DNA from: a bacterium
Lineage (GTDB): Bacteria; SAR324; XYD2-FULL-50-16; G965216635
Reading direction: 5' to 3'
DNA: 64,000 bases
Assembly (NCBI GenBank): GCA_965216635.1
Contig: OZ244188.1
Coordinates: 219,205-283,204 of the forward strand
Of the stretch, positions 17,945 to 44,852 are shown one piece after another. The translations under genes were made by a program, and so were the position numbers. Under the pieces are notes generated by a model. That model did not search any database. It was given only the letters and a program-made list of their open reading frames with translations, and was not told the DNA's origin. Positions within the stretch are counted from its first letter, which is position 1. Every line of letters starts with the position of its first letter.

Positions 17945-18577
17945 ATGTATCAAAAAAAAGTTTATTTTTTAATTCTTTTGGTTGGGTTTTTCAGCACTTC
18001 TTTAGTTTTTAGCTGGGATAAGGAGTTTTTTGAAAATATTGAGCAACCTATTGCATTTCCTCATAAACTGCATACCGTCAACAATGGTATAAGCTGTGAG
18101 TATTGCCATTCTTCGGCTCGTAATTCTATAAATGCGGGAATTCCTCCCGTGAGAACCTGTATCGGCTGTCATGCTTTAGTAAAAGGTCGTAGCGAAGAAC
18201 AGAAAAAAGAAATCCAAAAAATCACGGATTATTGGCAGAAAAAAGAGCCTATTCCTTGGAAAAAAATACACGATTTACCAGATTTTGTTTATTTTTCGCA
18301 TAAAAGACATATCAAAGCAGGTTTTGATTGCACGAATTGCCACGGAGATGTATCGGAAACCAAGACTCCTGTTCCCAAACCTCTTTATGGGAAGACTCCT
18401 TTGAGTATGGGTTGGTGTATTAGCTGTCATCTTGACGATCATCCAGTGGATAAAAATGGCAAAATAATCACTCTTCCTCGTTTGACGCGTGGGGGAATAA
18501 GGCAGTATGATAAGCCGACTCCAAAAGCGGTTGGTGTAAAAAATGGGAGTTTGGATTGTTTAGTTTGCCACAAATGA
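17945..18577 (+). CDS. actA: Alternative complex III subunit A, pentaheme cytochrome c
   Basis: Five CxxCH motifs (CEYCH, CIGCH, CTNCH, CISCH, CLVCH), N-terminal membrane anchor, position upstream of actB. Confidence 0.8.
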   Translation: MYQKKVYFLILLVGFFSTSLVFSWDKEFFENIEQPIAFPHKLHTVNNGISCEYCHSSARNSINAGIPPVRTCIGCHALVKGRSEEQKKEIQKITDYWQKKEPIPWKKIHDLPDFVYFSHKRHIKAGFDCTNCHGDVSETKTPVPKPLYGKTPLSMGWCISCHLDDHPVDKNGKIITLPRLTRGGIRQYDKPTPKAVGVKNGSLDCLVCHK

Positions 18578-18637: not shown

Positions 18638-20014
18638 ATGAAATATTTAAGTTTTTCATTAGAAAATTATAAAGGGATTAAAAAATTTTCAATTAATGTG
18701 GATCCAAACCAACCTATCTCGCTGGTAGGATTGAACGAGAGCGGTAAAACTACTATTTTAGAAGGTATAGACCATATAGGAAAACATTGTAAGCAATTAT
18801 CAACAAATAAGTTTCGGCAATTACTGAATAATGGAGAATTGGCAAAAGTAAGACCAAAAAAATTACCAGGTGTTTTTTTTAGTGATGAGATTAAATTTGC
18901 GTGTAAAGTTGTATGTGAAGAAAAAGTTTGCGAAATATCTTTTATCTATACTTTAGAAAAAGATAAAACCGCAGGCTACAAAGTGTTTTTTGATAAAGAG
19001 GAATTGAATTTTAAAGATGCTGATGTATTGGAAAAAATAAATAAATTTAGCGAAGAAATGCCAGAAATTATTTATTATTCTGATTTTACTCTTGAAGTTC
19101 CTCAAGAAATATTTTTTCATACAAATACTTATAAAAAAAAACAAACTCCAGGTATGTTGGCAAGTTTAGAAAGAGAAAATAAGAAATCCAATAACCCAGA
19201 ATGGCAAAAAATTTTACAGGATATAACGGATTCTCTATATTCTGAGGACGAAAAAGTGCTTTTTCAAGATGATATTGTAGATTATTTGGACGGTGACAAT
19301 ACTGGGGATGAAAATAGTTTTAGGGATAAGTTAACAGGTTTTAGCAGACATATAAACCAAAAAATCACCAAAAAATGGTTGCAAAGCCTACCAAAAAAAT
19401 CTTCTTTAAAAGAAATTGAATTTGTTTGTAATACAATGGAAAAAAATGCAAACACAAGAGAGTTTGCTTTTAAAGTTATCTCTAATGATGACGCTACATT
19501 TGATTTATCGGACAGATCTAAAGGCTGTAGGTGGTTTTTTGCTTTTATGTTATTTACAGAGTTTAGAAAATATAGAAAACAAAATACAATTTTTTTATTA
19601 GATGAGCCTGCTTCTAATTTACACTCTTATGTTCAAGAAAAAGTTATCCACGCTATTAATGAATTATGCGACGAAAAGACAGGCTCTATTGTTTTATATT
19701 CTACCCACTCTCCTTATTTACTAGATATAGAAAACGTAGAAACTATGTATCTTGTAGAAAATATCAATGCCTCTTCTGAGGTTAGGGAAGCAAGAATAGA
19801 AGTCAATTTATACACAGAAAACACTCGGGCAAGCAAGAAAGGAGAAGCGAAACCTATCTCTGATTATTTTCAGTTAAACTTGCAAAAAGTAATGAAATAT
19901 TTTGAAAAAAAAAATACTCCTAAAAAAATCGGAGCTATTGGTAAAAAATTTTTAGAAAATACAAGAAATATTAAAAATATAGCAGATGTGATTGAGTTTT
20001 CTAAGAATTTGTAA
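18638..20014 (+). CDS. Standalone ABC/OLD-family-type ATPase (AAA_15/AAA_21-like) inserted between actA and actB
   Basis: Walker A LVGLNESGKTTILEGI at the N-terminus; Walker B/D-loop IFLLDEPASNLH and H-loop YSTHSPYLLD near the C-terminus; no nuclease domain evident; 458 aa. Confidence 0.6.
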   Translation: MKYLSFSLENYKGIKKFSINVDPNQPISLVGLNESGKTTILEGIDHIGKHCKQLSTNKFRQLLNNGELAKVRPKKLPGVFFSDEIKFACKVVCEEKVCEISFIYTLEKDKTAGYKVFFDKEELNFKDADVLEKINKFSEEMPEIIYYSDFTLEVPQEIFFHTNTYKKKQTPGMLASLERENKKSNNPEWQKILQDITDSLYSEDEKVLFQDDIVDYLDGDNTGDENSFRDKLTGFSRHINQKITKKWLQSLPKKSSLKEIEFVCNTMEKNANTREFAFKVISNDDATFDLSDRSKGCRWFFAFMLFTEFRKYRKQNTIFLLDEPASNLHSYVQEKVIHAINELCDEKTGSIVLYSTHSPYLLDIENVETMYLVENINASSEVREARIEVNLYTENTRASKKGEAKPISDYFQLNLQKVMKYFEKKNTPKKIGAIGKKFLENTRNIKNIADVIEFSKNL

Positions 20015-20045: not shown

Positions 20046-23000
20046 ATGTCCCATAATAATATTAAAAACAACAAAATAAAAAGAAGAGATTTTTTCAAAA
20101 TAGCTGCGACCAGTGGCGCTGCTGTAGCTGTAGCCAGCTGTAATAATGACCCTGTAGAAAAAATACTCCCTTCTTTATTGCCTCCAGACAATTACCAAAC
20201 TGGTGTAGCTTTACATTTTGCTTCTGTATGCCAAGAATGTCCTTCTCAGTGCGGCATAGTAGTCAAAACTCGCGAAGGTAGGGCTATTAAAATTGAAGGC
20301 AACCCTAATCACCCTCTCAATCAAGGCAAACTTTGTGCTATAGGACAATCTGCTTTGCAAGGTTTATACAGTCCTAATCGCATTAAAAAAGCGACCCAAA
20401 AAGGCAAACAGCTAGATTTAGCAACAGCCAAAAACGAATTTTATGGCAAAATAAAACGTCTAGTCGCAGAAAACAGAGGCAAAGAAATTCTGTTTATTAG
20501 CCCCGCTGGAGATAGCAGTCTGCAAAGAATGACTACTAAAATTATTTCCCGTCTTGGAGCCTCCCAAATTCAGTTGGACTTGAGTTCTGCTAATTCCATC
20601 AAAAACGCAAACAAAATTTTGTACGGGAAAAACGAAGTTCCAGATTACCAATTTTCAAAAGCAAACTTTTTACTCAATTTTGGAGCAGATTTTTTGGAAG
20701 GCTGGCTTAATGTGATGAAAAATTCTAGAGAATTTGCCGAATTTCATTCTTACAAAAGAAAAAACAAAAACGAGTATGTGCATATTTCACCTCATCTTTC
20801 TACGACTGGTGTACAAGCAGACGATTGGATAAACTGCCCTTCCAAAGCAGAAGAAGCGATTGCACTCGCTTTGGTAGCCCGTCTGGCAGCTAGCAATTCT
20901 TCTCTTTCTGCAGCGGAAAAAAGGATTATCCGTAGCTATACTAAAAACCACAACATTGCCGCTGTGGCGAAAAAATACCAGCTAGATGCAAAAAAATTAG
21001 AGCAGATTGCCAAAAAACTAGCTACTAAAAGTAGCCTGATTATTGGAGGCGGTAATGCTACTTCCAACGGAGAGCAAACAAAACTGCAAATAGCGATTGC
21101 TCTTTTGAACTATCTTACTGGAAATACAAATCTAAACTTTGGAGCAGATTATAAATTTGGAGGCAGTAGCTTTGCAGAAATCAAGAAGGCTGTTCAAAAA
21201 ATAAAAAATAAAAAATATAGCCTAGTCGTAATTTTAGAGTTAAACCCTGCTTATATTTTTTCTATTTTCTCCGAATGGTCGGATAAAAAAGAAATTCAAG
21301 GAAAAGTTCCCATAGTGAGTTTGTCTCTGTCTCATAGCGAGACCACCGAGCAAGCGGATTTAGTAATTCCCATCACTTCCAGTTTTGAAAATTGGGGAGA
21401 TAGTTTTGCTGCCAATGGAATTTACGCTTTGCAGCAACCAGTAATGGCAAAGTTGCCGGGTTTTGAAGCAGAGCCTTTGGGAGATATTTTGCTTGGTTTG
21501 ACAAAAGAATTAGGCTGGAGCGGAGATAATTTTGAAGCTGCTGATTTTAAAAATTATTTAAGAAGTCAATGGAGAGGGCTACAAACCCAACTGAAATATG
21601 TAGGCACTTTTGAAATGTTTTGGATAGCTGCTTTGAAAAAAGGAGGGATTTTTCAAAATTATACTCCACAAAGAGCGAGTTTAAAAACCAATGCTTTGGC
21701 ACAGCTTAACGCTAGCGAAACAAAAACAGCTAAAGGCATTTCTTTAATGGTCCTAAATTCTAATTTGCATTCTAACGACGGCAGAACGGGGGATAGATAC
21801 TGGCTTTTAGAAATTCCCCATCCTTTAACGCAGGTCGTTTGGGATTCTTGGCTAGAAATTAACCCCGATAAAGCACAAGAATTAGGTATTCAACATTTAG
21901 ACGAAGTGGAAGTTACTACTTCTGCGGGCAGTGTCAAATTAGCTGCCTATATTTATGATTTTATAGATAAAAATACAGTTGCCATTCCAGCGGGCATGGG
22001 TAGAAGTTTGAAATTTCCTAACTATTCTTCCAGAAGAAACAGTATTTTACCATTCAAAGGTGGGCATAAAAGGACAAACCTTGTAGAAAAAAAGGTAGGC
22101 TTGAATCCTTTTGAATTGATTCCTTTTGCGACTGATGATTCTGGAGAGCTGATTTTTTCTGCAGAAAATATTAGTCTTAAAAAGACTGGAAAAAAATCTT
22201 TTTTGGTCAGCAGCGATGGGCAGTATAAAGACGATTCCAAAGCTCTTATTGCTGATACACCTACTGGTTACGGAGATAGAAGCCAAAAAGGAAGGCATTT
22301 GATTAGGTCAGTTTCTTTGAAGGAATTGAATTCTGGCAAAATCCACAAAGAAGGACACCAACTCAAAGATAGATTTTATACTACCGATAGACAAAACACC
22401 CACGATTTTTATAAGGAAAAAAGGGACGGTTTAGATAATCATATTTTTGGAATAAAGGGAAGTAAAACAGGAAAATACTACGACCCCTACAAGTTTGAAA
22501 TGAGTATAGATTTAGATAAATGCACGGGTTGTTCTGCTTGTGTGGTTGCCTGCTACGCCGAAAATAATATTGCAGTGGTCGGTAAAGAAAGACAGGCTAT
22601 CGGCAGGGAAATGTCTTGGCTTAGAATAGAAAGATACTTAGACAAAGATAAAAAAACCGGAAAAATCCAAGCGCTTTTATCGCCGCAGATGTGTCAACAG
22701 TGCGGCAACGCAGGTTGCGAAGCAGTCTGCCCCGTTTATGCAACTTACCACAACCCTGATGGACTCAACGCACAGATTTACAACCGTTGCGTTGGCACTA
22801 GATATTGTGCCAATAACTGCGTTTATAAACAAAGAAGATTTAACTGGAGAAGCTATAGTTTTCCATCTCCTTTGCATTACCAACTTAACCCCGATGTTAC
22901 TGTTCGCGACAAAGGAGTAATGGAAAAATGCACCTTTTGTGTGCAAAGAATTGTAGCTGCAAAAGATAAGGCTAAGGACGATAACCGAATTGTTTTTGAC

Positions 23001-23180
23001 GGAGAAATCAAAACAGCGTGTCAGCAAACCTGTCCGACAGAGGCAATTGTTTTTGGCAATGCGATGGATAAAAAATCTTTGCTTACAAAAACAAAAAAAG
23101 ATATTCGCGGCTATCACCAACTAGAAGAATTGAATTTTCAACCTGGGGTTACCTATCTCAGTAAAATAAAAAGAGGGTAA
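20046..23180 (+). CDS. actB: Alternative complex III subunit B (molybdopterin-oxidoreductase-like domain fused to 4Fe-4S ferredoxin domain)
   Basis: Tat signal KRRDFFKIAATSGAAVAVASC. 1044 aa. C-terminal Cys clusters CTGCSACVVAC, CQQCGNAGCEAVCP, CVGTRYCANNC and CTFCVQRI. Confidence 0.85.
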   Translation: MSHNNIKNNKIKRRDFFKIAATSGAAVAVASCNNDPVEKILPSLLPPDNYQTGVALHFASVCQECPSQCGIVVKTREGRAIKIEGNPNHPLNQGKLCAIGQSALQGLYSPNRIKKATQKGKQLDLATAKNEFYGKIKRLVAENRGKEILFISPAGDSSLQRMTTKIISRLGASQIQLDLSSANSIKNANKILYGKNEVPDYQFSKANFLLNFGADFLEGWLNVMKNSREFAEFHSYKRKNKNEYVHISPHLSTTGVQADDWINCPSKAEEAIALALVARLAASNSSLSAAEKRIIRSYTKNHNIAAVAKKYQLDAKKLEQIAKKLATKSSLIIGGGNATSNGEQTKLQIAIALLNYLTGNTNLNFGADYKFGGSSFAEIKKAVQKIKNKKYSLVVILELNPAYIFSIFSEWSDKKEIQGKVPIVSLSLSHSETTEQADLVIPITSSFENWGDSFAANGIYALQQPVMAKLPGFEAEPLGDILLGLTKELGWSGDNFEAADFKNYLRSQWRGLQTQLKYVGTFEMFWIAALKKGGIFQNYTPQRASLKTNALAQLNASETKTAKGISLMVLNSNLHSNDGRTGDRYWLLEIPHPLTQVVWDSWLEINPDKAQELGIQHLDEVEVTTSAGSVKLAAYIYDFIDKNTVAIPAGMGRSLKFPNYSSRRNSILPFKGGHKRTNLVEKKVGLNPFELIPFATDDSGELIFSAENISLKKTGKKSFLVSSDGQYKDDSKALIADTPTGYGDRSQKGRHLIRSVSLKELNSGKIHKEGHQLKDRFYTTDRQNTHDFYKEKRDGLDNHIFGIKGSKTGKYYDPYKFEMSIDLDKCTGCSACVVACYAENNIAVVGKERQAIGREMSWLRIERYLDKDKKTGKIQALLSPQMCQQCGNAGCEAVCPVYATYHNPDGLNAQIYNRCVGTRYCANNCVYKQRRFNWRSYSFPSPLHYQLNPDVTVRDKGVMEKCTFCVQRIVAAKDKAKDDNRIVFDGEIKTACQQTCPTEAIVFGNAMDKKSLLTKTKKDIRGYHQLEELNFQPGVTYLSKIKRG

Positions 23181-23231
23181 ACATCAAATTTTGCCTATGC
23201 TTTGTCTAACGCCTAATTTAAAAATAAAAAA

Positions 23232-23921
23232 ATGGTAGAAGTGAATCTAGAACACAAATCGGATGAGCAATTTGATAAAGAGTTGAGTGAAAAAAAAGTT
23301 ACCCCTAACCTACAAAATATAGGTTATTTACCTTGGATTGGAAAGGATTATGCTGACTTGCCTGACAAAAATAAAATTTTTATTCTTGGCGAAAGTGTTT
23401 ATAATGGTTGGAATCCTGATAAAAACGCTTCTAGAGATATAATAAATGGTCACGCAATAAAGACAAATCCTAGTCGTCTTTTTAGAAATATGAGTTGGGC
23501 TATTTGTGGAGAAAAAAAAAAGAAAGAGTTAAATCCAAAAGAGTTTTGGAGTAAAGTTTGTTTTAATAATTTGGTGCAAACTAAAATGAAAACTAAGAAG
23601 TATAGACCTTCTACAAGTGATTATGAAAATGGAACTGAATATATTGCAAAACAAATAGATATATTAAAACCTGCTTTAGTTATTTGTTTTAATAATTCGG
23701 ATGTAGCTAATTCTTTTAAAGAAATATTTGCTGACGCTAAATTAGAAGTTAAAGAAAAAGTAGGTAGAATAAAACCAAAAATACTAACAGCAAACAAGCT
23801 AAAAATATTATTTATTAAACACGCTAGTAGTTATTTTAGTTGGAGCAAATGGAATGAGTTTATAAATAAAAATGCAAAAGAAAATATTGATTGCTTTCAA
23901 TCATTAGAAAATACAAACTAA
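23232..23921 (+). CDS. Hypothetical protein (cargo between actB and actC)
   Basis: 229 aa, no confident family. Weak resemblance to uracil-DNA-glycosylase-superfamily motifs (ILGESVY...; HASSYFS). Confidence 0.3.
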   Translation: MVEVNLEHKSDEQFDKELSEKKVTPNLQNIGYLPWIGKDYADLPDKNKIFILGESVYNGWNPDKNASRDIINGHAIKTNPSRLFRNMSWAICGEKKKKELNPKEFWSKVCFNNLVQTKMKTKKYRPSTSDYENGTEYIAKQIDILKPALVICFNNSDVANSFKEIFADAKLEVKEKVGRIKPKILTANKLKILFIKHASSYFSWSKWNEFINKNAKENIDCFQSLENTN

Positions 23922-23930
23922 GTTTTAAAA

Positions 23931-24062
23931 TTAAAAAATGCTAACCTACGAAAAAATTGATAATGATTTTTTATAATTTATGCTAGAATGTATTTTTAAT
24001 AAACTAAAAAACCAAAATGAATAAAACTATAATCACTTTTTGCGATAAAGGAGGCGGACTGC
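23931..24062. repeat. Duplicated actC 5' end (about 35 bp incl. ATG) plus about 95-bp element-end sequence, copy 1
   Basis: aaaaaatgctaacctacgaaaaaattgataatgat + tttttataatttatgctagaatgtatttttaat...gcgataaaggaggcggactgc; compare real actC start at 27583-27620. Confidence 0.8.
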
Positions 24063-24139
24063 CTTAAAACTAAATTTTGTGCTTTTAAAATTAAAGTTAT
24101 AGACTGTGCTATACTGCAAAATAAAAGATAAATATTATT

Positions 24140-24619
24140 ATGGAAAAACAAAATGTATTGAGTGTGGCGGATTTTTTTATCACAGAAGTTGATAAAAAGT
24201 ATGGTGTAGATAATTTAAAATTAAACAAAATAGCCTATATCTCTTTAGGATTTTCACTATCTATACGGAATTTTGATTTATTTTCTGAAGATGTAGAAGC
24301 TTGGAATTGGGGTCCGGTAATTCCAGAATTGTATTATTCTTTTAAAGAATATGGCTCTAGGATTATTACTAAGCCTTCTGAAAGAGAAAATTCAAGTGAG
24401 ATAAAAGATGAAGATACTTTGGGTTTGTTGAATCTAGTAAAAGATCTTTATCAAAGTAAGAGTGGGTTAGAAATTATGGAATTGACTCATGTAAAAAACA
24501 CACCTTGGGATTATTGTTATGATGGAGAAAAAAATACAATTATAGATAAGAATATTATTAAAGATTACTATGATATTCTTATAAAAAACTTAAAAAAAAG
24601 TAATATTCTTATAGATTAG
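24140..24619 (+). CDS. Panacea-domain (DUF4065, SocA/PanA-like) antitoxin
   Basis: AWNWGPVIPELYYSFKEYGS matches the W.GPV....Y hallmark of DUF4065. Paralogous to the 195-aa protein at 39866..40453 (shared NLKLNKIAY, EAW.WGPVIPE.Y). Confidence 0.7.
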   Translation: MEKQNVLSVADFFITEVDKKYGVDNLKLNKIAYISLGFSLSIRNFDLFSEDVEAWNWGPVIPELYYSFKEYGSRIITKPSERENSSEIKDEDTLGLLNLVKDLYQSKSGLEIMELTHVKNTPWDYCYDGEKNTIIDKNIIKDYYDILIKNLKKSNILID

Positions 24620-24623
24620 TTTT

Positions 24624-25031
24624 ATGGTAAAATGTAATACTAAAGAAAAATTTTTATACTCAAAAGTTAGTGATGATAGTTCTGTAAGTGAATCCAAAGA
24701 AAAATTTAAAGCATCTGCTCCGATCAAGACAGAGATAAGTAAAGAATTTGAAGAGACGATAAGTAAAGAATTTGAATTGCTATATAACAATAGATTTAAA
24801 CAAGATACAGAATTAAGTAAAGATTTCTTTTACTTTGCTAAAGAAATTACTGGTTGGTGGATATTGATTTTATTTATAGTCTTATTGTGGCAATTATTTT
24901 TACCATTTGAAGGATACGGACAACGACTTTCTGATATTCAATTTTCTGTATTATTCAGCACTACTACTGTAACAGTGCTTGGTTTTTGGGGAATAGTTGG
25001 TTTGTATTTATTTCCTAAAAAAGGAAAATAA
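24624..25031 (+). CDS. Small membrane protein, candidate toxin partner of the Panacea antitoxin
   Basis: 135 aa, starts 4 bp after the antitoxin stop. Soluble charged N-terminal half, then two TM helices (WWILILFIVLLWQLF; VLFSTTTVTVLGFWGIVGLYLF). Confidence 0.45.
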   Translation: MVKCNTKEKFLYSKVSDDSSVSESKEKFKASAPIKTEISKEFEETISKEFELLYNNRFKQDTELSKDFFYFAKEITGWWILILFIVLLWQLFLPFEGYGQRLSDIQFSVLFSTTTVTVLGFWGIVGLYLFPKKGK

Positions 25032-25047
25032 AAAATAATTTTAATAA

Positions 25048-25177
25048 ACAAAAAATGCTAACTTACGCACAAATTGATAAGGATTTTTTATAATTTATGC
25101 TAGAATGTATTTTTAATGAACTAAAACCAAAATGAATAAAACTATAATCACTTTTTGCGATAAAAGAGGCGGACTGC
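25048..25177. repeat. Duplicated actC 5' end plus element-end sequence, copy 2
   Basis: aaaaatgctaacttacgcacaaattgataaggat (identical to real actC start) + ttttttataatttatgctagaatgtatttttaatgaac...gcgataaaagaggcggactgc. Confidence 0.85.
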
Positions 25178-25610
25178 AGAAAACCAGAATTTGTGATATT
25201 TTTGAAATAAGGATTGTTACTTACTCAACAGTTTAATAGCAATACTTTCAGGCGTAGAGTTATTTATTTTGACATCTGGAATTTGGATTGCTTACTCTAG
25301 TATTCAATCCCATAAAAACAGGCAAATTTAACCATTTTTGCACAAAAATCGCCTTTTTTAATTATTTAATTCTAAAAAAAAACTTTTTGTAAATGCTTTA
25401 AAAATCTTATAAAATTCCTTGAATTAAGGAAAATATTGAATTTTTGTGAAAAAAAAGTTACTATTTTAATAAATTTATTAAAAACAATAAACGGATTTTA
25501 AGACTTTTTGGGGCGGTTGTTAAGAATGGTTTTAAATTTCCTTCGTTAAAGTTTTATATCATAAAAACTAAAACAGACATATTTCTTTGTCTGTGCGTAA
25601 TAAATAAAAT

Positions 25611-26132
25611 ATGGAACAAAGAAAAGTTGAGTTTCTTTTAGAATATCAACAAAGAATAGATCAAAAAGCTAGAGAGAACTCTAGTGAGTTGATTTCTAAC
25701 GGAACCATTGAACACGCTAGAATCTTAATTGCTTCTATTTTTAGTGTTGCAAATAAAAAAATAGAAATATTTACAGGATTTCTTAATCCAATAATCTACA
25801 ATGATAAAAAAATCATTGACAGCGCCTTTAATTTTCTAAAAAAACAAAACACTAAAATAGAAGTTGTAGTGCAAGAAAATGACCACTCATTAGGTTTGAA
25901 TGAATTTGTGAATGAAGCTAAGAATAATAAACAATTTGTTCTTAAAGAAGCAAATGAAATTGATAAAAATGAACAGTATCATTTTATAGTTGCTGATAGT
26001 AAATCATTCCGTTATGAACCTGATAAAGCAAAAAATATAGGTATAGGTTGTTTTAACAAACCAGCATTTGCTGAGAAACTTAATAATCGCTTTCAAGAAA
26101 TATTTAAACAAGCAAAAACGCTGGAAATTTAA
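25611..26132 (+). CDS. Hypothetical protein (cassette cargo)
   Basis: 173 aa, no recognisable family; preceded by an about 400-bp AT-rich leader with a hairpin acagacatatttctttgtctgt. Confidence 0.35.
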   Translation: MEQRKVEFLLEYQQRIDQKARENSSELISNGTIEHARILIASIFSVANKKIEIFTGFLNPIIYNDKKIIDSAFNFLKKQNTKIEVVVQENDHSLGLNEFVNEAKNNKQFVLKEANEIDKNEQYHFIVADSKSFRYEPDKAKNIGIGCFNKPAFAEKLNNRFQEIFKQAKTLEI

Positions 26133-26147
26133 AAGAAAGAATATTCT

Positions 26148-26714
26148 ATGGATTTTTTTTATATTATAGAAATTTCTTTTTTATTAAATATAGCTTATAG
26201 AGAGCTAAAATCTTCTCGTTGGAAGCAAGAATTTGAGAAAAAATATTCTACTTATTTCAACGCATTTGAGATGACAGAATCTATTGGTAGAGATATTCTA
26301 AAAAAAGATAATCTGTTCCAACCAGAAGGAAAACAGTTTGTTGAGGGATTAGAAAAAGGGGAAAAGAATGCTTGGGAGAACAAATTTTTTATTCCTTTTT
26401 ATTACCGCAATTTTATTTGCAAAGAATGGAGTAAAAAATTTACTGGTTGTATTATATTAGGTATAATTATTATTATAGGAATATTGTATTTTTTTGCAGG
26501 ATATAATTATTATATTTACATAAAAAACACTTCCTTTGTCGCATTTTTAATCTTTTCTATGTGCCCTTTTATTTTTAGTTTTTTTGATAATCGGTGTTAT
26601 AATTATTTATTTGGTGATAATGGAAGAATAGAATTTATTATAAAAGAAATAACAAGAAAAAATAAATCTATGATGGATGATGAGCTAGATTTACCAGAAA
26701 GAGCATTAAAGTAA
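26148..26714 (+). CDS. Hypothetical membrane protein (cassette cargo)
   Basis: 188 aa; central hydrophobic segments (FTGCIILGIIIIIGILYFFAG; SFVAFLIFSMCPFIFSFF); 16 bp after the preceding ORF. Confidence 0.35.
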   Translation: MDFFYIIEISFLLNIAYRELKSSRWKQEFEKKYSTYFNAFEMTESIGRDILKKDNLFQPEGKQFVEGLEKGEKNAWENKFFIPFYYRNFICKEWSKKFTGCIILGIIIIIGILYFFAGYNYYIYIKNTSFVAFLIFSMCPFIFSFFDNRCYNYLFGDNGRIEFIIKEITRKNKSMMDDELDLPERALK

Positions 26715-26799
26715 TTAACTTACCAACCTCTTATATCCTTACCATTTTTATACCGATTCCTTAAAAATACTCTTCAATAAAAAAACAAATAAATGAAAA

Positions 26800-27048
26800 A
26801 TGGCTAGTTTAGCAGAAAAAGAGGTAGATGCAAATTTTGATTATTTTCAAACACTACTTCCAGAATTAAAACAAACTCACTTTGAAAAATTTGCTTTATT
26901 GCATAAAAAAAAAATTATTGAATTTTTTGATACTGCTAGAGATGCAGCAAAGTTTGGGATAGTAAAATTCGGAAAAGGCAATTTTTCTGTGCAACAAGTA
27001 GCTGATAGACGTGTTGATTTAGGATATCAAGGACATGTCCTCTTTTAG
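26800..27048 (+). CDS. Small hypothetical protein overlapping the downstream aspartic protease gene
   Basis: 82 aa; 14-nt overlap with 27035..27538 suggests translational coupling. Confidence 0.35.
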   Translation: MASLAEKEVDANFDYFQTLLPELKQTHFEKFALLHKKKIIEFFDTARDAAKFGIVKFGKGNFSVQQVADRRVDLGYQGHVLF

Positions 27049-27538
27049 GCAAACTTTAAATAAAAACAGGCAGTTTATTATTACTGTAAAAGTTATTGAG
27101 TCACCTTTGGAAAAAGAGAAATACAAAGACGGCACAGCACAAAGATTTCTTATTAAGGCGGAAACTCAAAAAGCTTTGATTGATACAGGTGCTAATACGA
27201 CTAGTATATCTCAAAAATATGCGAATGAATCAGGTTTAGTTGCTACTGGAAAAACCATTACAAGTACTGCTGGAGGAGATTGTAGAGAAAATTTATTTTT
27301 GATTGATATTGCTATTCCGATTACTCAAACTGCATTAAAACCTTTTACAGCAAAAGACGGTAGTCAGCAGTTTAAACCATTTATAATTGGAGAAGAACAT
27401 TGGGCTCACGCAGAACTTGAGGTTACTTCTTTTGCAGTTGGTGAAGGATATTATGGTTTTGATATTCTTTTAGGTATGGATATACTATCTCAAATGCATA
27501 TTACTATGTTTCATAATGAGATTATTATGTCTTTTTAA
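27035..27538 (+). CDS. Retropepsin-like (clan AA) aspartic peptidase
   Basis: ALIDTGANTTSIS contains the D-T/S-G-A catalytic motif in a hydrophobic-hydrophobic-D-T-G-A context; about 170 aa, typical of single-domain bacterial retropepsins. Confidence 0.55.
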   Translation: MSSFRQTLNKNRQFIITVKVIESPLEKEKYKDGTAQRFLIKAETQKALIDTGANTTSISQKYANESGLVATGKTITSTAGGDCRENLFLIDIAIPITQTALKPFTAKDGSQQFKPFIIGEEHWAHAELEVTSFAVGEGYYGFDILLGMDILSQMHITMFHNEIIMSF

Positions 27539-27588
27539 AAAATTGTAAAATTTATTACACAAGTTTTCTTAATTTTAAAAAATAAAAA

Positions 27589-28935
27589 ATGCTAACTTAC
27601 GCACAAATTGATAAGGATGTTTTAAAATCAATGGAGCCACCCGGCAAAAAATGGTTTTTGTGCATCGCAGTTTCTTTGACCGCTTTGGCTATGGGGATTT
27701 ATGCCCTTTATATCCAAGTTGCCGGAGGACTAGAGATTAGCGGAATTTCGCATCCTATTGGTTGGGGAGTTTATATTACTGACTTTGTTTTTTGGGTAGG
27801 TATTGCACACGCGGGAACCTTAATTTCTGCAGTGCTTTTTCTAACGCGAGCTCCTTACAGAACTTCTATCTATAGAACTGCAGAGGCGATGACAGTTTTT
27901 GCGGTAATGACGGCTGGGCTTTTTCCTATTATCCATGTAGGGCGGATTTGGAACGCCTACTGGTTAGTGCCTTATCCCAATCAAAGAGAGCTTTGGGTCA
28001 ATTTCAAATCTCCGCTCCTTTGGGATGTTTTTGCGGTTTCTACCTATATGTCGGTTTCCATTGCCTTTTTTATTGTAGGGTTGATTCCAGACTTTGCCAC
28101 AGTGCGAGATCGCACCAAAGGTTTGATGAAATTTTTTTACGGGTTTTTGGCATTAGGCTTTAGAGGCACCAATCACCAGTGGGTGCATTATTTGAGAGGC
28201 TACCTACTTTTTGCAGCACTGGCTACTCCTCTAGTTTTTTCCGTTCACTCCATAGTCTCTTGGGATTTTGCAATGTCTAGTATACCGGGCTGGCATACCA
28301 CAATTTTTGCTCCTTACTTTGTAGCAGGTGCGATTTTTTCGGGCTGTGCTATGGTCTTGACGATTGTGATTCCTATGAGAAAAATTTTTAGAGGCTTTGA
28401 AGAAATTATAAAAATAGAACACTTAGAGGCTTTGGGTAAACTGATTTTACTCACGGGAACGATTGTAACCTATTCTTACACCATAGAATTTTTTATTGCC
28501 TATTATAGCGGTAATCCTTACGAAAAAGCTATTTTTTGGTTTCGCCCTTTTGGAGAATTAAAGGGATTTTTCTGGTTGATGGTGCTTTGTAATTGTATTG
28601 GTCCCATTCCCCTTTGGAGAAAGAAAATTCGCACCAATCTCGCTGCTCTTTTTGTGATTTCTATTATTGTCAATGTAGGTATGTGGTTGGAAAGATTTAA
28701 CATAGTCGTCACTTCGCTGTCTCACGATTTTGTGCCTTTTGTTTGGAGCAACTACCAGTTTCAGTGGGGCGAAATTTGGATTACTATCGGTAGTTTTGGT
28801 TGGTTTTTCACTTGGTTTTTTCTATTTGTTAAAATTATGCCTTCTATGTCGGTTACAGAATTGAAGGAAGCATTGCCTCCAATGTTGCGAAAAGGTAAAA
28901 TGACACCTAGGCCAGTTTCTGGCTTCTATAAATAA
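27589..28935 (+). CDS. actC: Alternative complex III subunit C (NrfD/PsrC-like polytopic membrane subunit)
   Basis: 448 aa, about 10 TM helices, positioned between actB and actDEF. Confidence 0.8.
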   Translation: MLTYAQIDKDVLKSMEPPGKKWFLCIAVSLTALAMGIYALYIQVAGGLEISGISHPIGWGVYITDFVFWVGIAHAGTLISAVLFLTRAPYRTSIYRTAEAMTVFAVMTAGLFPIIHVGRIWNAYWLVPYPNQRELWVNFKSPLLWDVFAVSTYMSVSIAFFIVGLIPDFATVRDRTKGLMKFFYGFLALGFRGTNHQWVHYLRGYLLFAALATPLVFSVHSIVSWDFAMSSIPGWHTTIFAPYFVAGAIFSGCAMVLTIVIPMRKIFRGFEEIIKIEHLEALGKLILLTGTIVTYSYTIEFFIAYYSGNPYEKAIFWFRPFGELKGFFWLMVLCNCIGPIPLWRKKIRTNLAALFVISIIVNVGMWLERFNIVVTSLSHDFVPFVWSNYQFQWGEIWITIGSFGWFFTWFFLFVKIMPSMSVTELKEALPPMLRKGKMTPRPVSGFYK

Positions 28936-29097: not shown

Positions 29098-29628
29098 ATG
29101 AATAAAAAATTTTGCGGAGTTTGGGCAACTTTTGAATATTTAGACGACTTTTGCAACAGCGTAAAAGATTTGCGTAGCAAAAATTTTAAAAAAATCACTA
29201 CCTATTCGCCTTGCCCTCGTCATGAGATTTTGGACGCTTTGGGTAATCCAGTGAGTAGAGTGCCTTTTTTCACTTTAGCGTTTGGAATTTTAGGAGTAAC
29301 CATAGCCTATACTTTAGCAAGCTGGATGTCGCTGGATTGGGTTTTACCAGTGTCTAATAAACCGATTGTGTCTCTTCCTCCGTTCACTATTATAGCTTTT
29401 GAATTAATGGTGCTTTTGGGAGCCTACGGCACTATGGTTGGAGTTGTTTTTTTGATAATCCGAGAAACTAGAAAATTTACTTTCCCGAAAAGTAATAAAT
29501 TCAAAAACTACGACAGATTTACCCACGATAGGTTTGGTTTGGTAGTGCGGTGCAAAAAAAAAGATATTAAAAAATTGATACAAATTGTCAAAATACATCA
29601 ACCAGAAGAAATCAACAATGAAAGTTAA
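29098..29628 (+). CDS. actD: Alternative complex III subunit D (small membrane subunit)
   Basis: 176 aa, two TM helices, operon position. Confidence 0.65.
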   Translation: MNKKFCGVWATFEYLDDFCNSVKDLRSKNFKKITTYSPCPRHEILDALGNPVSRVPFFTLAFGILGVTIAYTLASWMSLDWVLPVSNKPIVSLPPFTIIAFELMVLLGAYGTMVGVVFLIIRETRKFTFPKSNKFKNYDRFTHDRFGLVVRCKKKDIKKLIQIVKIHQPEEINNES

Positions 29629-39565: not shown

Positions 39566-39865
39566 TTATAACCCTAGTTCCGAATGGGAACCTGTTCTAA
39601 TTAAAATAAGTTCGTCATTTTTTATTCTATATTCTAAAAGCCAATCTCCTTTTATGTGGCATTCTTTGTTACCTTTACTACTACCTTTCAATTTATGGTC
39701 TTTATTGATTTCAGGGAGCTTGATTCCTTGGGCTAATAATCCAATAATTTCATTAAGATCATTAATATCTCTATTTTTGCTTTTACCTTGTCGGTTTATT
39801 TTTTCTAGATCGTCTTTAAATTTTTTTTTATATTTTAGAGTATAATTATATTCTGACTCTGACAT
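39566..39865 (-). CDS. YafQ/RelE-family type II toxin (mRNA interferase)
   Basis: 99 aa; KDHKLKGSSKGNKECHIKGDWLLEYRIKNDELILIRTGSHSEL matches the YafQ C-terminal signature (H...DW.L.Y......L.L.RTG.HS.L). Confidence 0.7.
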   Translation of the reverse strand: MSESEYNYTLKYKKKFKDDLEKINRQGKSKNRDINDLNEIIGLLAQGIKLPEINKDHKLKGSSKGNKECHIKGDWLLEYRIKNDELILIRTGSHSELGL

Positions 39866-40453
39866 CTAAATCCCTAAATCTTTTAGCATAGACTTAAAAT
39901 CACTATAACTTTTTGGTTCAGGTTCGGATAATAAAGCCACTATAGTTTCTCTGTTGGGAAGTCCAAATGATGGTATAGGATAATATGCTTTTATTTCTTC
40001 TTTGGGTATTTTGATATTTTTAATGTTTGGTTTATACAATCTTGCCCAAGGACTGTTTTCATCGTGAAATTCGTCATAAAAATACTTTTTACTCATTGAG
40101 GAATAAATTTCTATAACAGTATCTAGTATTTCTTCAGTCTTCCTCTGTAGGCTACTACTGGCATTATCTATTATAGATGGAATAGTTTTTTTACCATTTT
40201 TTAAAAAATAATATTTTTCTTTTATATTTTTATTACCATAATTCTTAAATTTACAATAAACCTCAGGTATGACAGGCCCATGTTCCCAAGCCTGAATTTC
40301 ATCTTTAAATAATTCTAAATTGTAATAAGCAGAACCTATTCCATAAGCACTGTAAACAAATTTGTTTAATTTAAAATTGTCTATCTCTTTAACTTTATCA
40401 ATAAAATAATTTGCTATTTGGACTGCGGTGTATTTATTATTTTCAGTTTCCAT
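39866..40453 (-). CDS. Panacea-domain (DUF4065) antitoxin, immediately upstream of the YafQ-like toxin
   Basis: QAWEHGPVIPEVYCKFKNYGN hallmark; 195 aa; its stop abuts the toxin start. Confidence 0.7.
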   Translation of the reverse strand: METENNKYTAVQIANYFIDKVKEIDNFKLNKFVYSAYGIGSAYYNLELFKDEIQAWEHGPVIPEVYCKFKNYGNKNIKEKYYFLKNGKKTIPSIIDNASSSLQRKTEEILDTVIEIYSSMSKKYFYDEFHDENSPWARLYKPNIKNIKIPKEEIKAYYPIPSFGLPNRETIVALLSEPEPKSYSDFKSMLKDLGI

Positions 40454-40740: not shown

Positions 40741-40870
40741 TTTTTCATACAATCAAATTTTGTTTGTCTAGCAAATAAAGAAAAAGTGCCAGTACCAGTG
40801 CGGTCTTTTTTTTCTGCTCCTTCTTCTATAATCTGCTTCAATAAATCTAAATAACTTTGCATTTTTTATG
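40741..40870. repeat. Duplicate of thyA promoter-proximal/5' coding region (copy b)
   Basis: ttttcatacaatcaaattttgtttgtctagcaaataaagaaaaagtgccagtaccagtgcggtc...ctaaataactttgcattttttatgcg identical to 39346-39465 (real thyA start). Confidence 0.9.
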
Positions 40871-42569
40871 CGCTAGGAGATAAATTTTCTTTAAAAAAAT
40901 TTAATATAGTGCGGGAAAATTTATCTTCTCGTTTTTCAATATCTTCTTTTAGCCAATCGTCTTTAGTATATCGTGATAATTTTTGAACCTCTGCTATATT
41001 AGAATTTTTATATACTTCTTTTTTTGTTTTGAAGTTATCATTGCTTGCTTGATTATTAGTTTTTTTCTCTATAGCAACCTTGTTGCCGAATTTTTCTCTA
41101 TATTTCTTTGCATCTTCTTCACTCCATCCATGATAATTCTTCCACCGCCAAGGAAAAATATGTTCAATCTCAAATTTTTCTGAAATCAATTCTTCTTGTT
41201 TTGGGTTTTGATAAGCGTGCACTAAAATTAGTCCTCTTGCTATTCTTAAGTTGTTTGCATTACTAATCCTAGTTTTCAAAGGTGGATTTTGGTATTTTTC
41301 TAATTCAATATTCATTTCATAATTTTTATTTTGGCATAAATTTTCACACTCTTTATGAGTATCGTTTTTAATTTCATTTACAGTTGGTTTTTCTATAAAT
41401 TTGACATACAAAAATGCAGTTAGTTTTTTTAAAAATTGTAGAAAATTTTCTTCAAAATTAGGTCCATCTTTTTTTTTCAGATAAAAAACGCTAGTGAGAT
41501 ATCTCCAATGTTCGTTTGGATAATTTTGTAAGCAATGCAGATATTTATACGTTTCTTGGATAATTTTTTTATTTTTAAAATCTAAATCTCTTCCATTTAT
41601 AGCTACCCAAAAAGTAGCTAGTTTATCTAAATTTTCCAGCAAATTAGGCTCTGCTAGTTTTTTGTAACCGTCTCTTGCATAAAATTTTCTTAAACTCACT
41701 TCAACTTCCTTTTTAGTATTTTTTGCTTTTCCTCCAAGATAGCGCATATAATAGGTAAATAAATTATTTAAAAAAATTTTAGCGGGTTCAAGTTTTTTTA
41801 CTTTTTCTACCAATTCTTTCCAATCATTAATAAATTTTTCTTTTTCTTCATCTGTTTTTTTTGTTTTATAAATTTCTGCTTTAAAAATATCAGAGTCATT
41901 CAAAGGCAATCCTCTATCGTTAAGTGTAGAAAAAATTGTTAAGGCAGCGCCAGCATTATTGCATTCAATAGGTAAAATGATACATTTATTTAGTATAACA
42001 CTGAGTAAAGAGTGCCATTTTAAAGGCTCATTTCTAGCGTATTTTTCGCATTGGTTATAAAAAAAATTATAATTTTTTTGGTACCTGTTTTTTTCATCAA
42101 TATCTAATTTTCCTTCTGTTAAAATGGTATGAAATATTTTATTATCACTTTCAGTAACAACTTTTGATTCAATATTTATTTTTGTTTTATTTTCTGCTCT
42201 ATGATAGGTTTCATCCACTTCCCAAATGCAAGGTTCAATATCTCTTTTTAAGATATCAATGTTACTATCTTCATTCATTTCTTCTAGTTTTTTATAAAAG
42301 GCTCGCAACAATAAAAAAAATGAAATAACTCTCTGCTGTCCGTCAATAACTTCTATATTTTTTTGTTCATCTTTGCTGGTAACTATTGTACCCAAAAAGT
42401 ATTCTTCCTCTTTTTTATCTTTAGAAAAATTATCTATATCATCCCATAAAATTTCACATTTTTCTTCATCCCAGCTGTAAGGTCTTTGGTATTCAGGAAT
42501 AATAAATTTCCCTTTCTTAATGCTTAAAAAACTTTTTATACTTTCTCTGCTTACATTTAATTCTGCCAT
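40866..42569 (-). CDS. GmrSD-family type IV (modification-dependent) restriction enzyme, DUF262+DUF1524
   Basis: N-terminal DUF262 with IPEYQRPYSW and DGQQR motifs; C-terminal DUF1524/HNH-like EIEHIFP...; 567 aa. Confidence 0.7.
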   Translation of the reverse strand: MAELNVSRESIKSFLSIKKGKFIIPEYQRPYSWDEEKCEILWDDIDNFSKDKKEEEYFLGTIVTSKDEQKNIEVIDGQQRVISFFLLLRAFYKKLEEMNEDSNIDILKRDIEPCIWEVDETYHRAENKTKINIESKVVTESDNKIFHTILTEGKLDIDEKNRYQKNYNFFYNQCEKYARNEPLKWHSLLSVILNKCIILPIECNNAGAALTIFSTLNDRGLPLNDSDIFKAEIYKTKKTDEEKEKFINDWKELVEKVKKLEPAKIFLNNLFTYYMRYLGGKAKNTKKEVEVSLRKFYARDGYKKLAEPNLLENLDKLATFWVAINGRDLDFKNKKIIQETYKYLHCLQNYPNEHWRYLTSVFYLKKKDGPNFEENFLQFLKKLTAFLYVKFIEKPTVNEIKNDTHKECENLCQNKNYEMNIELEKYQNPPLKTRISNANNLRIARGLILVHAYQNPKQEELISEKFEIEHIFPWRWKNYHGWSEEDAKKYREKFGNKVAIEKKTNNQASNDNFKTKKEVYKNSNIAEVQKLSRYTKDDWLKEDIEKREDKFSRTILNFFKENLSPSA

Positions 42570-42601
42570 AATAATTTTTAAAGTTTAGGTTTATAATACT
42601 A

Positions 42602-42664
42602 TAGACCTTTGAATTTGCGTTATGTTTAGCCTTGCCGTCGCATCAGCGAAATTCAAAGGTCTAT
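42602..42664. mobile_element. Short MITE (63 bp)
   Basis: tagacctttgaatttgcgttatgtttagccttgccgtcgcatcagcgaaattcaaaggtctat. Confidence 0.8.
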
Positions 42665-42779
42665 AATAAAAAAAAGTAAGTTTGTATAGTTTAGCAAAAA
42701 AAACTTCTTTGTCAAGTATAAAATATAATTTTTAGCAAAAAAACTTCTTTGTCAAGTATAAAATAGACTTTTGATTTTA

Positions 42780-42965
42780 ATGGTTTTTTTGTCTGGAAAT
42801 AATTTTTCTATTATAAGGAGTATGTTTTTCTATTTTCATACAATCAAATTTTGTTTGTCTAGCAAATAAAGAAAAAGTGCCAGTACCAGTGCGGTCTTTT
42901 TTTTCTGCTCCTTCTTCTATAATCTGCTTCAATAAATCTAAATAACTTTGCATTTTTTATGCGCT
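42780..42965. repeat. Junction block: 5' fragment of the 410-aa methyltransferase gene + duplicate of thyA 5'/promoter region (copy a)
   Basis: 42785-42850 is the reverse complement of atgaaaatagaaaaacatactccttataatagaaaaattattt (compare 46040-46085). 42838-42990 repeats the thyA start plus 40 bp of its upstream region. Confidence 0.85.
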
Positions 42966-43862
42966 TAAACTTAAAATTTTATATTTTTTTTCTACTAATT
43001 TTAATTCCTTATTTTTATTTTCCCAAATATTAACAAAATCTTTGTTTTGCATAGTGCGAATTTTCCCCAGATAGATTGAAACAAAAGAGTCATTAATTTT
43101 TGTTTCTTTTGCTTCTACTACATTTTTTTTTGCTATTTCCACATAGTCAGAATCTAGCTCTATTCCAATATAGTTTCTTCCTAATTGTTTTGCTGCTATT
43201 GCTGTAGTTCCAGTTCCTATAAATGGATCTAAAACCACATCGTTTTCTTCTGTGGACATTAAAATCAACCTTTCTAAAAGAGGAATGGGTAACTGGCAAG
43301 GATGGTTATCTCGTCTTTTTTTGTGACGGAGTCTATGAATATCTGTCCATACATCTGAAAGTAAGGGACCGAATCCATGGGCTTGATCTTTTTTACCGCC
43401 ATAATCTTTTAGAAATTCTTTACAACTACGGCAACTAGAATGCGGAGCTCTAATATCATAAAATTTAAAATCTTTATAATTTTGCGAACGAGTGTAGTAT
43501 AAAATTCCATAATGATTTGGTAGTAAAGTTTTGCCAAGCGGAACCCCACCAGAGTCCCAAGAAATCCAGTGTTTAAAGCAAGCAATTTTATTTAGATATC
43601 CTGCATAGTAATTAAGCCAACGAGGAATGTTATGCACAAAAATAGAACCGCTAGGTTTTGTTACTCTTACCATTTCACTAATCCATTCTTTACACCAATT
43701 CAAATAGTCTTCTTGTTCTTTCGTATCTTCATAGGAAGTATAATTTTTTTTGAGGTTAAAAGGTGGGTCAGCAAAGCTCATATCTGCAGACTCATTTGGT
43801 ATTTTTTTTAGCCATTGCAGGCAATCTCCTTCTATAATTTTATTGAGGTATTTTTTAAGCAT
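42957..43862 (-). CDS. Beta-class N6-adenine/N4-cytosine DNA methyltransferase
   Basis: N-terminal NKIIEGDCLQWLKKIP...FADPPFN (motif IV) and C-terminal VLDPFIGTGTTAIAA (motif I); pfam N6_N4_Mtase order IV then I. Confidence 0.8.
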   Translation of the reverse strand: MLKKYLNKIIEGDCLQWLKKIPNESADMSFADPPFNLKKNYTSYEDTKEQEDYLNWCKEWISEMVRVTKPSGSIFVHNIPRWLNYYAGYLNKIACFKHWISWDSGGVPLGKTLLPNHYGILYYTRSQNYKDFKFYDIRAPHSSCRSCKEFLKDYGGKKDQAHGFGPLLSDVWTDIHRLRHKKRRDNHPCQLPIPLLERLILMSTEENDVVLDPFIGTGTTAIAAKQLGRNYIGIELDSDYVEIAKKNVVEAKETKINDSFVSIYLGKIRTMQNKDFVNIWENKNKELKLVEKKYKILSLSA

Positions 43863-43864
43863 AA

Positions 43865-44848
43865 TTATTTTTTAAAAGTTTGAATGAGAAGTTTTTTAAA
43901 TCTTTCTAACTCTTCTTTATGAAAAGTAAAAACTTCATTATAAGCGCTAACCATTCTTTTTAAATCTCCTTTTCTTACATACCATCCAATACCATCTATA
44001 AATCCAATAAATTTCGCTTTTGGATAATGAGATTTGATAAGATAATCTACAGAAATTTCTGTTTTAGATTTGTCTCCCTGTCCTGATGAAGTTGTAACTA
44101 AAAATGAACTTTCACCAATAATTAAAGGATTTCTTTTGTCTGGTATTATAAAATCCATTGTTCTTTTAGTGGTAGGAGCGTTAGTAACTAATTCGTTTAA
44201 ATCTCCTTTTTCAAAAGGAATATTTAAATCTTTTAATATTTTTTCTATCAGTGTTTCAGGATTATTTTCTTTTTTTCCAGAATAGCTCCCTTTTTCTTTA
44301 TACCTTACTAGAGTATCTATCATTTCTGGTATTTCAAATTTAAGTTTTGAAATACTTAATTTTTTGAGCTCAAATAAAGGAATAGTTTTAGCTAAAAATG
44401 GAATAGTAGAACCTTCAAAAAAAATATTCACTATCCCTTTCCTAAAAGATTGATTTTCTTTTATTATTTTTCTAATCTGACTGTCTGACCATTCTTTAAT
44501 ATCACTACTTTTTTCTTCAAACCATTCTTCTTTATTTACTAATCTATTAAGTTCATCATCATTAACTACTCTAATAATTGTTGTTAATCTTTTTAAAGTT
44601 TCATTAGAAAAACCTGTTAATGCCAATAACGCTCTCAAACCATTTTCTTTTTCAAGGAGTATTTTTTCAAATAACTCTTTCTTTAGTCCATTATTTTCAA
44701 TTTCATTTTTTAAAAATAAAAGTATTTCTTTTAATGAATTCAGATAACCCTCATATTTTTCTTCAAAAATTGGGTTGAAAAAATAAAAAGTATTTTTACT
44801 GATTATAGTCTGAAATTTTGATTCTATTGTTGGTAAGTTTGTTTGCAT
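43865..44848 (-). CDS. Hypothetical protein, candidate restriction endonuclease of the R-M cassette
   Basis: 327 aa, sandwiched between two MTase genes with 2-4 bp spacing; possible PD-(D/E)xK-like segment MDFIIPD...IIGESSF...K; no firm motif. Confidence 0.35.
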   Translation of the reverse strand: MQTNLPTIESKFQTIISKNTFYFFNPIFEEKYEGYLNSLKEILLFLKNEIENNGLKKELFEKILLEKENGLRALLALTGFSNETLKRLTTIIRVVNDDELNRLVNKEEWFEEKSSDIKEWSDSQIRKIIKENQSFRKGIVNIFFEGSTIPFLAKTIPLFELKKLSISKLKFEIPEMIDTLVRYKEKGSYSGKKENNPETLIEKILKDLNIPFEKGDLNELVTNAPTTKRTMDFIIPDKRNPLIIGESSFLVTTSSGQGDKSKTEISVDYLIKSHYPKAKFIGFIDGIGWYVRKGDLKRMVSAYNEVFTFHKEELERFKKLLIQTFKK

Positions 44849-44852
44849 AGCA

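Follow-up and report, generated by a model that had tools for sequence, protein, structure and literature searches.

Which function can be assigned to a Panacea-domain gene that is followed, almost without a gap, by a gene for a small membrane protein? The question is raised by a locus at positions 24140 to 25031 of the 64-kb stretch of DNA analyzed here (the window), for which an initial annotation had described a 159-aa Panacea ORF, a spacing of 4 nt and a 135-aa ORF whose product is charged in its N-terminal half and carries two transmembrane (TM) helices toward its C-terminus. Both the coordinates and the features were confirmed. Judging from comparisons with published systems, the pair probably (we would put it at about 80%) constitutes a PanA-PanT toxin-antitoxin (TA) module of the type reported by Kurata et al. 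(2022; PNAS 119:e2102212119; PMC8832971), with a toxin of their cluster T3 encoded downstream of the antitoxin.

The panA and panT genes and their products

The upstream gene, panA (24140..24619, + strand; stop codon TAG at 24617-24619), encodes a protein of 159 aa that matches the Pfam profile SocA_Panacea, PF13274, over model positions 1-112 of 113 (E=1.5e-11; 45.6 bits for a cutoff of 25.7) and, in a PHROG search, phrog_1281 (E=1.8e-32). This protein, PanA, consists of the Panacea domain alone, without an extra N-terminal domain, and is acidic (pI 4.8). It keeps at residues 58-60 the GPV signature, a motif that is critical for neutralization by PanA proteins (Kurata et al., 2022). Across the 27 sequences of alignment A3, two positions never vary (W55 and P59, in the numbering of the window protein), and two others, G58 and V60, are near-invariant.

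Between the panA stop and the panT start lies a spacer of 4 nt, TTTT, so that the junction reads TAG-TTTT-ATG. The downstream gene, panT (24624..25031, + strand), codes for the 135-aa candidate membrane toxin of cluster T3. Its product opens with a cytoplasmic N-terminal region (residues 1-76; 24624..24851, + strand), delimited by charge counts, the family alignment A1 and AlphaFold2, in which 14 K/R stand beside 15 D/E. Residues 1-38 of this region are variable in A1 and disordered in the AlphaFold2 prediction, whereas residues 39-76 form, according to the same two sources, a conserved amphipathic juxtamembrane helix with the family consensus QD..RK.FA..A..IT. The first TM helix (residues ~77-97; 24852..24914, + strand), which is supported by Kyte-Doolittle windows of up to 2.28 and by conservation in A1, carries the family-invariant W79 and the near-invariant Q90; the G-x-G-L-S loop is also part of the conserved family core in A1. 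The second TM helix (residues ~107-129; 24942..25010, + strand) was recognized by its hydrophobicity and by the family motif TTT(T/V)..(L/F)GFW..VG.YLFP, which reads TTTTA...GFW.LVG.YLFP in A1. All the near-invariant positions of the family, i.e., W79, Q90, L102, F107, T115, W122, G126, L129, and F130, are kept in the window protein.

AlphaFold2, run on the family alignment, gave a model of PanT whose pLDDT averages 78.5 and exceeds 88 from residue 41 on. This model comprises a disordered segment (residues 1-38), a long helix (39-96), a loop of 7 residues and a second helix (104-129), and in this model the long helix would pass from the cytoplasm into the membrane. The lysines past the second TM helix, together with the charged stretch ahead of the first, suggest a hairpin of N-in/C-in topology. 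A Foldseek comparison of the model with the PDB gave no match. The variable N-terminal region also holds a short internal duplication, EISKEFEE / TISKEFEL, at residues 36-53 (24729-24782), outside the conserved core.

The PanT family, its gene linkage and cluster T3

Searches with the 135-aa PanT gave nothing significant in Pfam, PADLOC, PHROGs, and NCBIfam, the sole match being DUF7632 below threshold, and a word-index homology search retrieved only PanT itself. On the other hand, phmmer against 1.84 billion cluster representatives recovered 67 proteins at E<=1e-3, of ~90-170 aa and aligned to PanT residues ~35-135; the best of them is 52% identical to PanT (E=4e-16), and nothing closer occurs among these representatives. 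Throughout alignment A1 the N-termini are variable and acidic and the core is conserved. A profile search of an index of 5.8 billion proteins extended the family to 172 clusters (90% identity), all of them unnamed or called "hypothetical," with a Pfam domain in none except for one isolated PF20040 entry. The partner of PanA had initially been described as having no obvious family; this description has to be given up, since a profile search finds these 172 clusters and the family has been published as T3. The novelty suggested for the pair was likewise overstated, because the family is large and already in the literature.

The family is bound to Panacea genes. Six diverse members (P0008, P0133, P0163, P0017, P0115, P0169) could be placed by exact-sequence look-up, and all six have a Panacea gene directly upstream, which codes for 158-187 aa and overlaps the toxin gene or lies within 4 nt of it in five of the six cases. 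The same order, antitoxin then toxin, with genes that overlap or leave a gap of at most 4 nt, is found at loci L001-L010. A genome scan with a tighter sub-alignment of the PanT family (A2) as the query, covering one genome per GTDB species, returned 23 loci, mostly from Alphaproteobacteria. When the ORFs that end where a toxin gene begins were extracted, pooled with those of the earlier loci and scanned against Pfam, PF13274 was matched in 26 of the 27 upstream ORFs, the Panacea gene overlapping or abutting the toxin gene. The adjacency of panA and panT is therefore not a matter of chance, since the same two-gene layout recurs in 26 of 27 loci of other genomes. With this linkage and the T3 membership discussed below, the proposed pairing of a Panacea protein with a small membrane toxin gains support from sequence comparison.

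Two loci in alphaproteobacterial metagenome-assembled genomes (MAGs) depart from the common layout. One of them (L027, 2478-3345) is a decayed module with a frameshifted PanA and a truncated toxin, and the other (L019, 2911-3390) holds an apparently orphan T3 toxin with no PanA ORF upstream. Both exceptions are instructive, and the rule of panA-panT linkage is not at odds with them. The closest relatives of the window pair, L001, L003 and L004 (ENA sample ERZ26869290) and L002 (GCA_014238815.1), encode a PanA and a 93-aa T3 toxin in several copies. Their modules are flanked by pieces of housekeeping genes, duplicated or inverted (the C-terminus of TyrRS, the ATP synthase delta/OSCP subunit), which could reflect a true rearrangement around the module or an artifact of assembly.

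The linkage also bears on the suggestion that the two-TM protein is a holin-like lysis protein of a phage remnant. The size of PanT and its two TM helices are like those of class II holins, but the family is strictly linked to Panacea genes rather than to lysis cassettes, no endolysin gene is adjacent in ~30 loci, PanT has no PHROG match, and the island that surrounds the pair in the window lacks endolysin, spanin and any other phage structural or lysis genes. A holin is thus hardly credible here.

Is this family one of the published toxin clusters? Kurata et al. (2022) validated nine PanA-PanT pairs, three of whose toxins have TM helices. Cluster T3 is represented among the validated pairs by PanA and PanT of E. 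coli STEC O31 (WP_000287252.1 / WP_000019185.1); the E. coli toxin causes depolarization and uptake of SYTOX Green and is neutralized by its PanA, and the T3 toxin of V. cholerae is also toxic (Kurata et al., 2022). Toxins of clusters T3 and T12 both depolarize and permeabilize the membrane, with a strong effect (Kurata et al., 2022). A further T3 row in the authors' table is entered as "Marinicaulis flavus SY-3-19" (taxid 2058213), with toxin WP_133162165.1, the order antitoxin then toxin (A, T) and a distance of -50 (PMC8832971). Taxid 2058213 now stands for Hyphococcus luteus, and locus L024 of our scan comes from Hyphococcus luteus SY-3-19; the overlap between its PanA ORF and its toxin ORF is exactly 50 nt, in keeping with the listed -50, and an exact-sequence look-up of its toxin returned WP_133162165.1. 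Since taxid, overlap and accession all agree, L024 is the locus of the listed T3 row.

The window protein was compared with this T3 member in several ways. In hhalign, alignment A1, which was seeded with the window protein, matched WP_133162165.1 with a probability of 99.9% (E=1e-31). An independent HMM, made from 22 genome-scan toxins only, WP_133162165.1 among them and the window protein excluded, scored the window PanT at 67.0 bits (E=8e-23), while the best of 500 shuffles, in which each half of the protein, N- and C-terminal, kept its own composition, reached 14.3 bits with the same HMM. Neither a T12 toxin nor the other TM protein of the island scored above ~6 bits with the T3 HMM. BLASTP between the window PanT and the Hyphococcus T3 member was significant over the region of the second TM helix only (E=1e-7). 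The architecture of the window PanT, a charged N-terminus followed by two TM helices, fits the description of T3 in Kurata et al. (2022). That the family of the window toxin is cluster T3 is thus well supported by sequence comparison; the tie to the E. coli PanT runs via the co-clustered WP_133162165.1 and the clustering of the original authors. Homology to T12 was considered as well and was rejected, hhalign against D11S_2262 of phage S1249, one T12 sequence, giving a probability of 8.8%; T3 and T12 are themselves described as only "potentially homologous" (Kurata et al., 2022).

The assigned family does not by itself make PanT a poison in its host, where the protein might be harmless, serving PanA as a membrane anchor or partner, or might be an inactivated remnant kept through its linkage. 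In E. coli, eight of the PanTs examined by Kurata et al. (2022) showed no toxicity, and decay is seen elsewhere in the family, in the pair at L027 and the orphan toxin at L019. Decay could also be tolerated in this host given its several paralogous copies: the 2,394,643-bp host contig encodes at least three T3 toxins (P0001, P0010, P0030) and at least five PanA proteins (P0002, P0003, P0005, P0006, and the PanA at 39866-40453). Against a loss of toxicity, however, the ORFs of panA and panT are both intact, all the near-invariant family positions are retained, the protein still scores 67 bits with an HMM derived from other genomes, and the tight coupling of antitoxin then toxin has been kept. 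A non-toxic PanT is therefore unlikely, and we retain the reading as an active TA module.

The low-GC island, its repeats and neighboring modules

The panA-panT pair lies in an island of 4.4 kb (23214-27633) with a GC content of ~25%, compared with ~38% in the flanks. This island splits an operon for alternative complex III (ACIII) between actB (20046-23180) and actC, of the NrfD family (27589-28935). An actA-like gene for a multihaem cytochrome (17945-18577) precedes actB, and actC is followed by actD (29098-29628; PF11821, E=5e-39) and, further downstream, by actE and actF. The operon is interrupted a second time between the actA-like gene and actB, by a gene of 28-30% GC that codes for an AbiEii-like AAA_15/AAA_21 ATPase of 458 aa (18638-20014, + strand); the flanks of this insertion hold no target-copy repeats comparable to those of the island.

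Direct repeats frame the pair. The left one, R1 (23907..24081, + strand), is 88% identical over 175 nt to 25024-25195 and consists of a degenerate version of the actC start (19 nt of upstream sequence and the first 45 nt of the gene), followed by an element of ~110 nt, X, which forms the leader of panAT. The right one, R2 (25024..25195, + strand), joins a copy of the beginning of actC to a second version of the element, X', and opens the next cassette; in a three-way alignment, this copy shares 93% identity with the genuine 5' end of the gene. The template of these repeats, R3 (27570..27633, + strand), is the genuine upstream region of actC with the first 45 nt of the gene. The actC-start segment of ~64 nt is accordingly present in three copies, at 23919, 25036, and 27570, and X is the left end shared by cassettes 2 and 3 (23983-24081 and 25100-25195). 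The repeats of ~175 nt on either side, 88% identical, mark panAT as a unit of 1117 bp.

The island as a whole is made up of three cassettes, with a copy of the actC start at the end of each. Its first gene encodes a UDG-like protein of 229 aa (23232-23921, + strand; PF03167 below threshold, E=8e-5). This gene starts where actC would originally have had its ATG, and a fourth copy of the upstream segment, a partial one, precedes it. The third cassette holds a gene for a DUF7931 protein (25611-26132, + strand; E=1.2e-7), followed by one for a multi-TM protein of 188 aa (26148-26714, + strand), then an ORF of 82 aa (26800-27048, + strand) that overlaps by 14 nt the gene of a retropepsin-like aspartyl protease of 167 aa (27035-27538, + strand; PF13975 at 1.6e-9; PADLOC PDC-M08B at 3.9e-5). 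Both the DUF7931/multi-TM and the 82-aa/protease pairs may be further TA or defense pairs.

The repeat pattern would be accounted for if small circular cassettes had been inserted one after another, in a site-specific or homologous manner, at the start of actC. In that case panAT would be carried by a small mobile cassette without a recombinase gene of its own, placed in tandem with two others at the 5' end of actC; X, ~110 nt long, would form its left end, and its right end would copy ~64 nt of the target, i.e., the ribosome-binding region and 45 nt of actC. If true, the island would be an integron-like array of TA or defense cargo within the ACIII operon, on the strand of the operon and possibly under its promoter. 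We consider this scenario doubtful. No recombinase gene was found within the island, an exact 30-nt pattern from X is absent from JGI metagenome contigs, and at L001-L004, from the closest relatives, similarity to the window is limited to coding sequence and X is lacking. X was also examined as a structured RNA or a member of a known RNA family, and this was rejected (folding z-scores of -0.4 to +1.6; no Rfam match). We claim no promoter in the island, because it contains 23 promoter-like sites where shuffled sequences have a mean of 25.

A second Panacea module is found in the same window. Its PanA (39866-40453, - strand) is a protein of 195 aa with a C-terminal extension of ~50 aa (PF13274, E=1.2e-15), directly abutted by the gene of a 99-aa toxin of the YafQ/RelE family (39566-39865, - strand; PF15738, E=2e-27), so that the order is again antitoxin then toxin, as in panA-panT. 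The pairing of this second PanA with a bona fide YafQ indicates that panA genes of this genome do sit in TA modules. The statement in the initial annotation that Panacea proteins pair with diverse toxins is borne out here within 64 kb, by two unrelated partners, T3 and YafQ. The module adjoins a cluster of defense genes on the - strand (40866-46085), which comprises GmrSD (40866-42569, - strand), an N6/N4 DNA methylase (42957-43862, - strand), an unannotated ORF of 327 aa that may be a restriction enzyme (43865-44848, - strand) and a second methylase-like gene (44853-46085, - strand).

Such neighbors invite the reading of panA-panT as a module of abortive infection, in which phage infection would free the toxin and the membrane potential of the infected cell would collapse. 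This role would be compatible with the TA mechanism, and several features of the window agree with it: the low-GC island holds the other small candidate defense or TA pairs, its aspartyl-protease gene has the weak match to PADLOC PDC-M08B, the AbiEii-like AAA ATPase is encoded one gene upstream in the same operon, and the second PanA module adjoins GmrSD and DNA methylases. Some family members also occur in prophage-like settings, such as L011, which adjoins a terminase gene. However, neither PanA nor PanT matches any defense-system model of PADLOC-DB 2.0 at E<=0.1, and tblastn with the window toxin (P0001) across 50,697 phage records gave no match. A tblastn search of plasmids with protein P0074 was also empty. 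Phage defense is thus a realistic but minority possibility, and the pair is treated in what follows as a PanA-PanT TA module.

Proposed action of the module and its likeness to known systems

The 4-nt spacing suggests that panA and panT are co-transcribed and translationally coupled. Free PanT would sit in the inner membrane as a helical hairpin with both ends in the cytoplasm, where its amphipathic helix would lead into the first TM helix. Like the validated E. coli toxin of T3, it would dissipate the membrane potential and permeabilize the membrane, and we infer on this ground that the window PanT is toxic. The soluble and acidic PanA would neutralize it, most likely by direct binding (type II); the contact would plausibly be made at the conserved juxtamembrane helix, residues 39-76, before or after insertion of PanT into the membrane. 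Stable PanA-PanT complexes were obtained for five cognate toxins, all of them soluble and none of the membrane type (Kurata et al., 2022). Direct binding of PanA to a T3 toxin is consequently an extrapolation, because complexes are known for soluble toxins only.

Neutralization could alternatively follow the type VI mode of SocA-SocB, PanA acting as an adaptor that delivers PanT to a protease, e.g., ClpXP or FtsH. PanA does match the NCBIfam equivalog SocA_antitoxin (NF047745) at E=6e-18, and binding and adaptor modes may not be mutually exclusive (Kurata et al., 2022), but the score of this match is 65.1 bits, far below the cutoff of 190, PanT is unrelated to SocB, and neutralization by PanA in E. 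coli is independent of ClpXP and Lon (Kurata et al., 2022). An adaptor role is for these reasons very unlikely, and neutralization by direct binding remains the preferred reading.

The panA-panT pair is an ordinary further example of a published TA family, and its sole unusual feature is its position as a repeat-bounded cassette within a respiratory operon. This setting is a minor curiosity with regard to selfish modules that colonize essential operons. Of wider use is the assignment itself: at least 172 clusters labeled "hypothetical," without a Pfam, NCBIfam, PHROG, or PADLOC model, are now tied by accession to the T3 toxins, which gives panT and its relatives a testable function. The conserved juxtamembrane helix is moreover a candidate PanA-binding surface, and bears as such on how a soluble Panacea protein neutralizes a membrane-embedded toxin, a question left by Kurata et al. 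(2022).

Among known systems, SocA-SocB of Caulobacter crescentus, a type VI TA system, shares with the window pair the Panacea domain of its antitoxin. Its toxin is unrelated to PanT, and its mode of neutralization is different, SocA being an adaptor for ClpXP. SocB itself is soluble and acts by inhibiting the replication clamp. In type I TA systems, membrane toxins such as Hok and TisB resemble PanT as small hydrophobic proteins that depolarize the inner membrane. These toxins are ~30-50 aa long, have one TM helix and are controlled by antisense RNA, whereas the antidote of PanT would be a protein encoded upstream, and PanT has a cytoplasmic region of 76 aa and two TM helices; an Rfam search of the island gave no RNA match. 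The phenotypes of the membrane-type PanTs were compared with that of HokB (Kurata et al., 2022).

The T12 modules, represented by the PanT of Bartonella apis and by D11S_2261/D11S_2262 of Aggregatibacter phage S1249, likewise encode downstream of PanA a toxin with a charged N-terminus and TM helices, and the validated T12 member disrupts membranes as T3 does; the window PanA is 27% identical to the PanA of phage S1249 (E=8e-15). The closest likeness is to T3 as described by Kurata et al. (2022): there too, PanA has no domain other than Panacea, and the gene immediately downstream encodes a small toxin whose N-terminus is charged and whose TM helices lie at the C-terminal end. The window pair differs from these modules in its host, a low-GC (34%) genome of another lineage that carries several paralogous copies, and in its setting, an ACIII operon in which repeats delimit it as a cassette.
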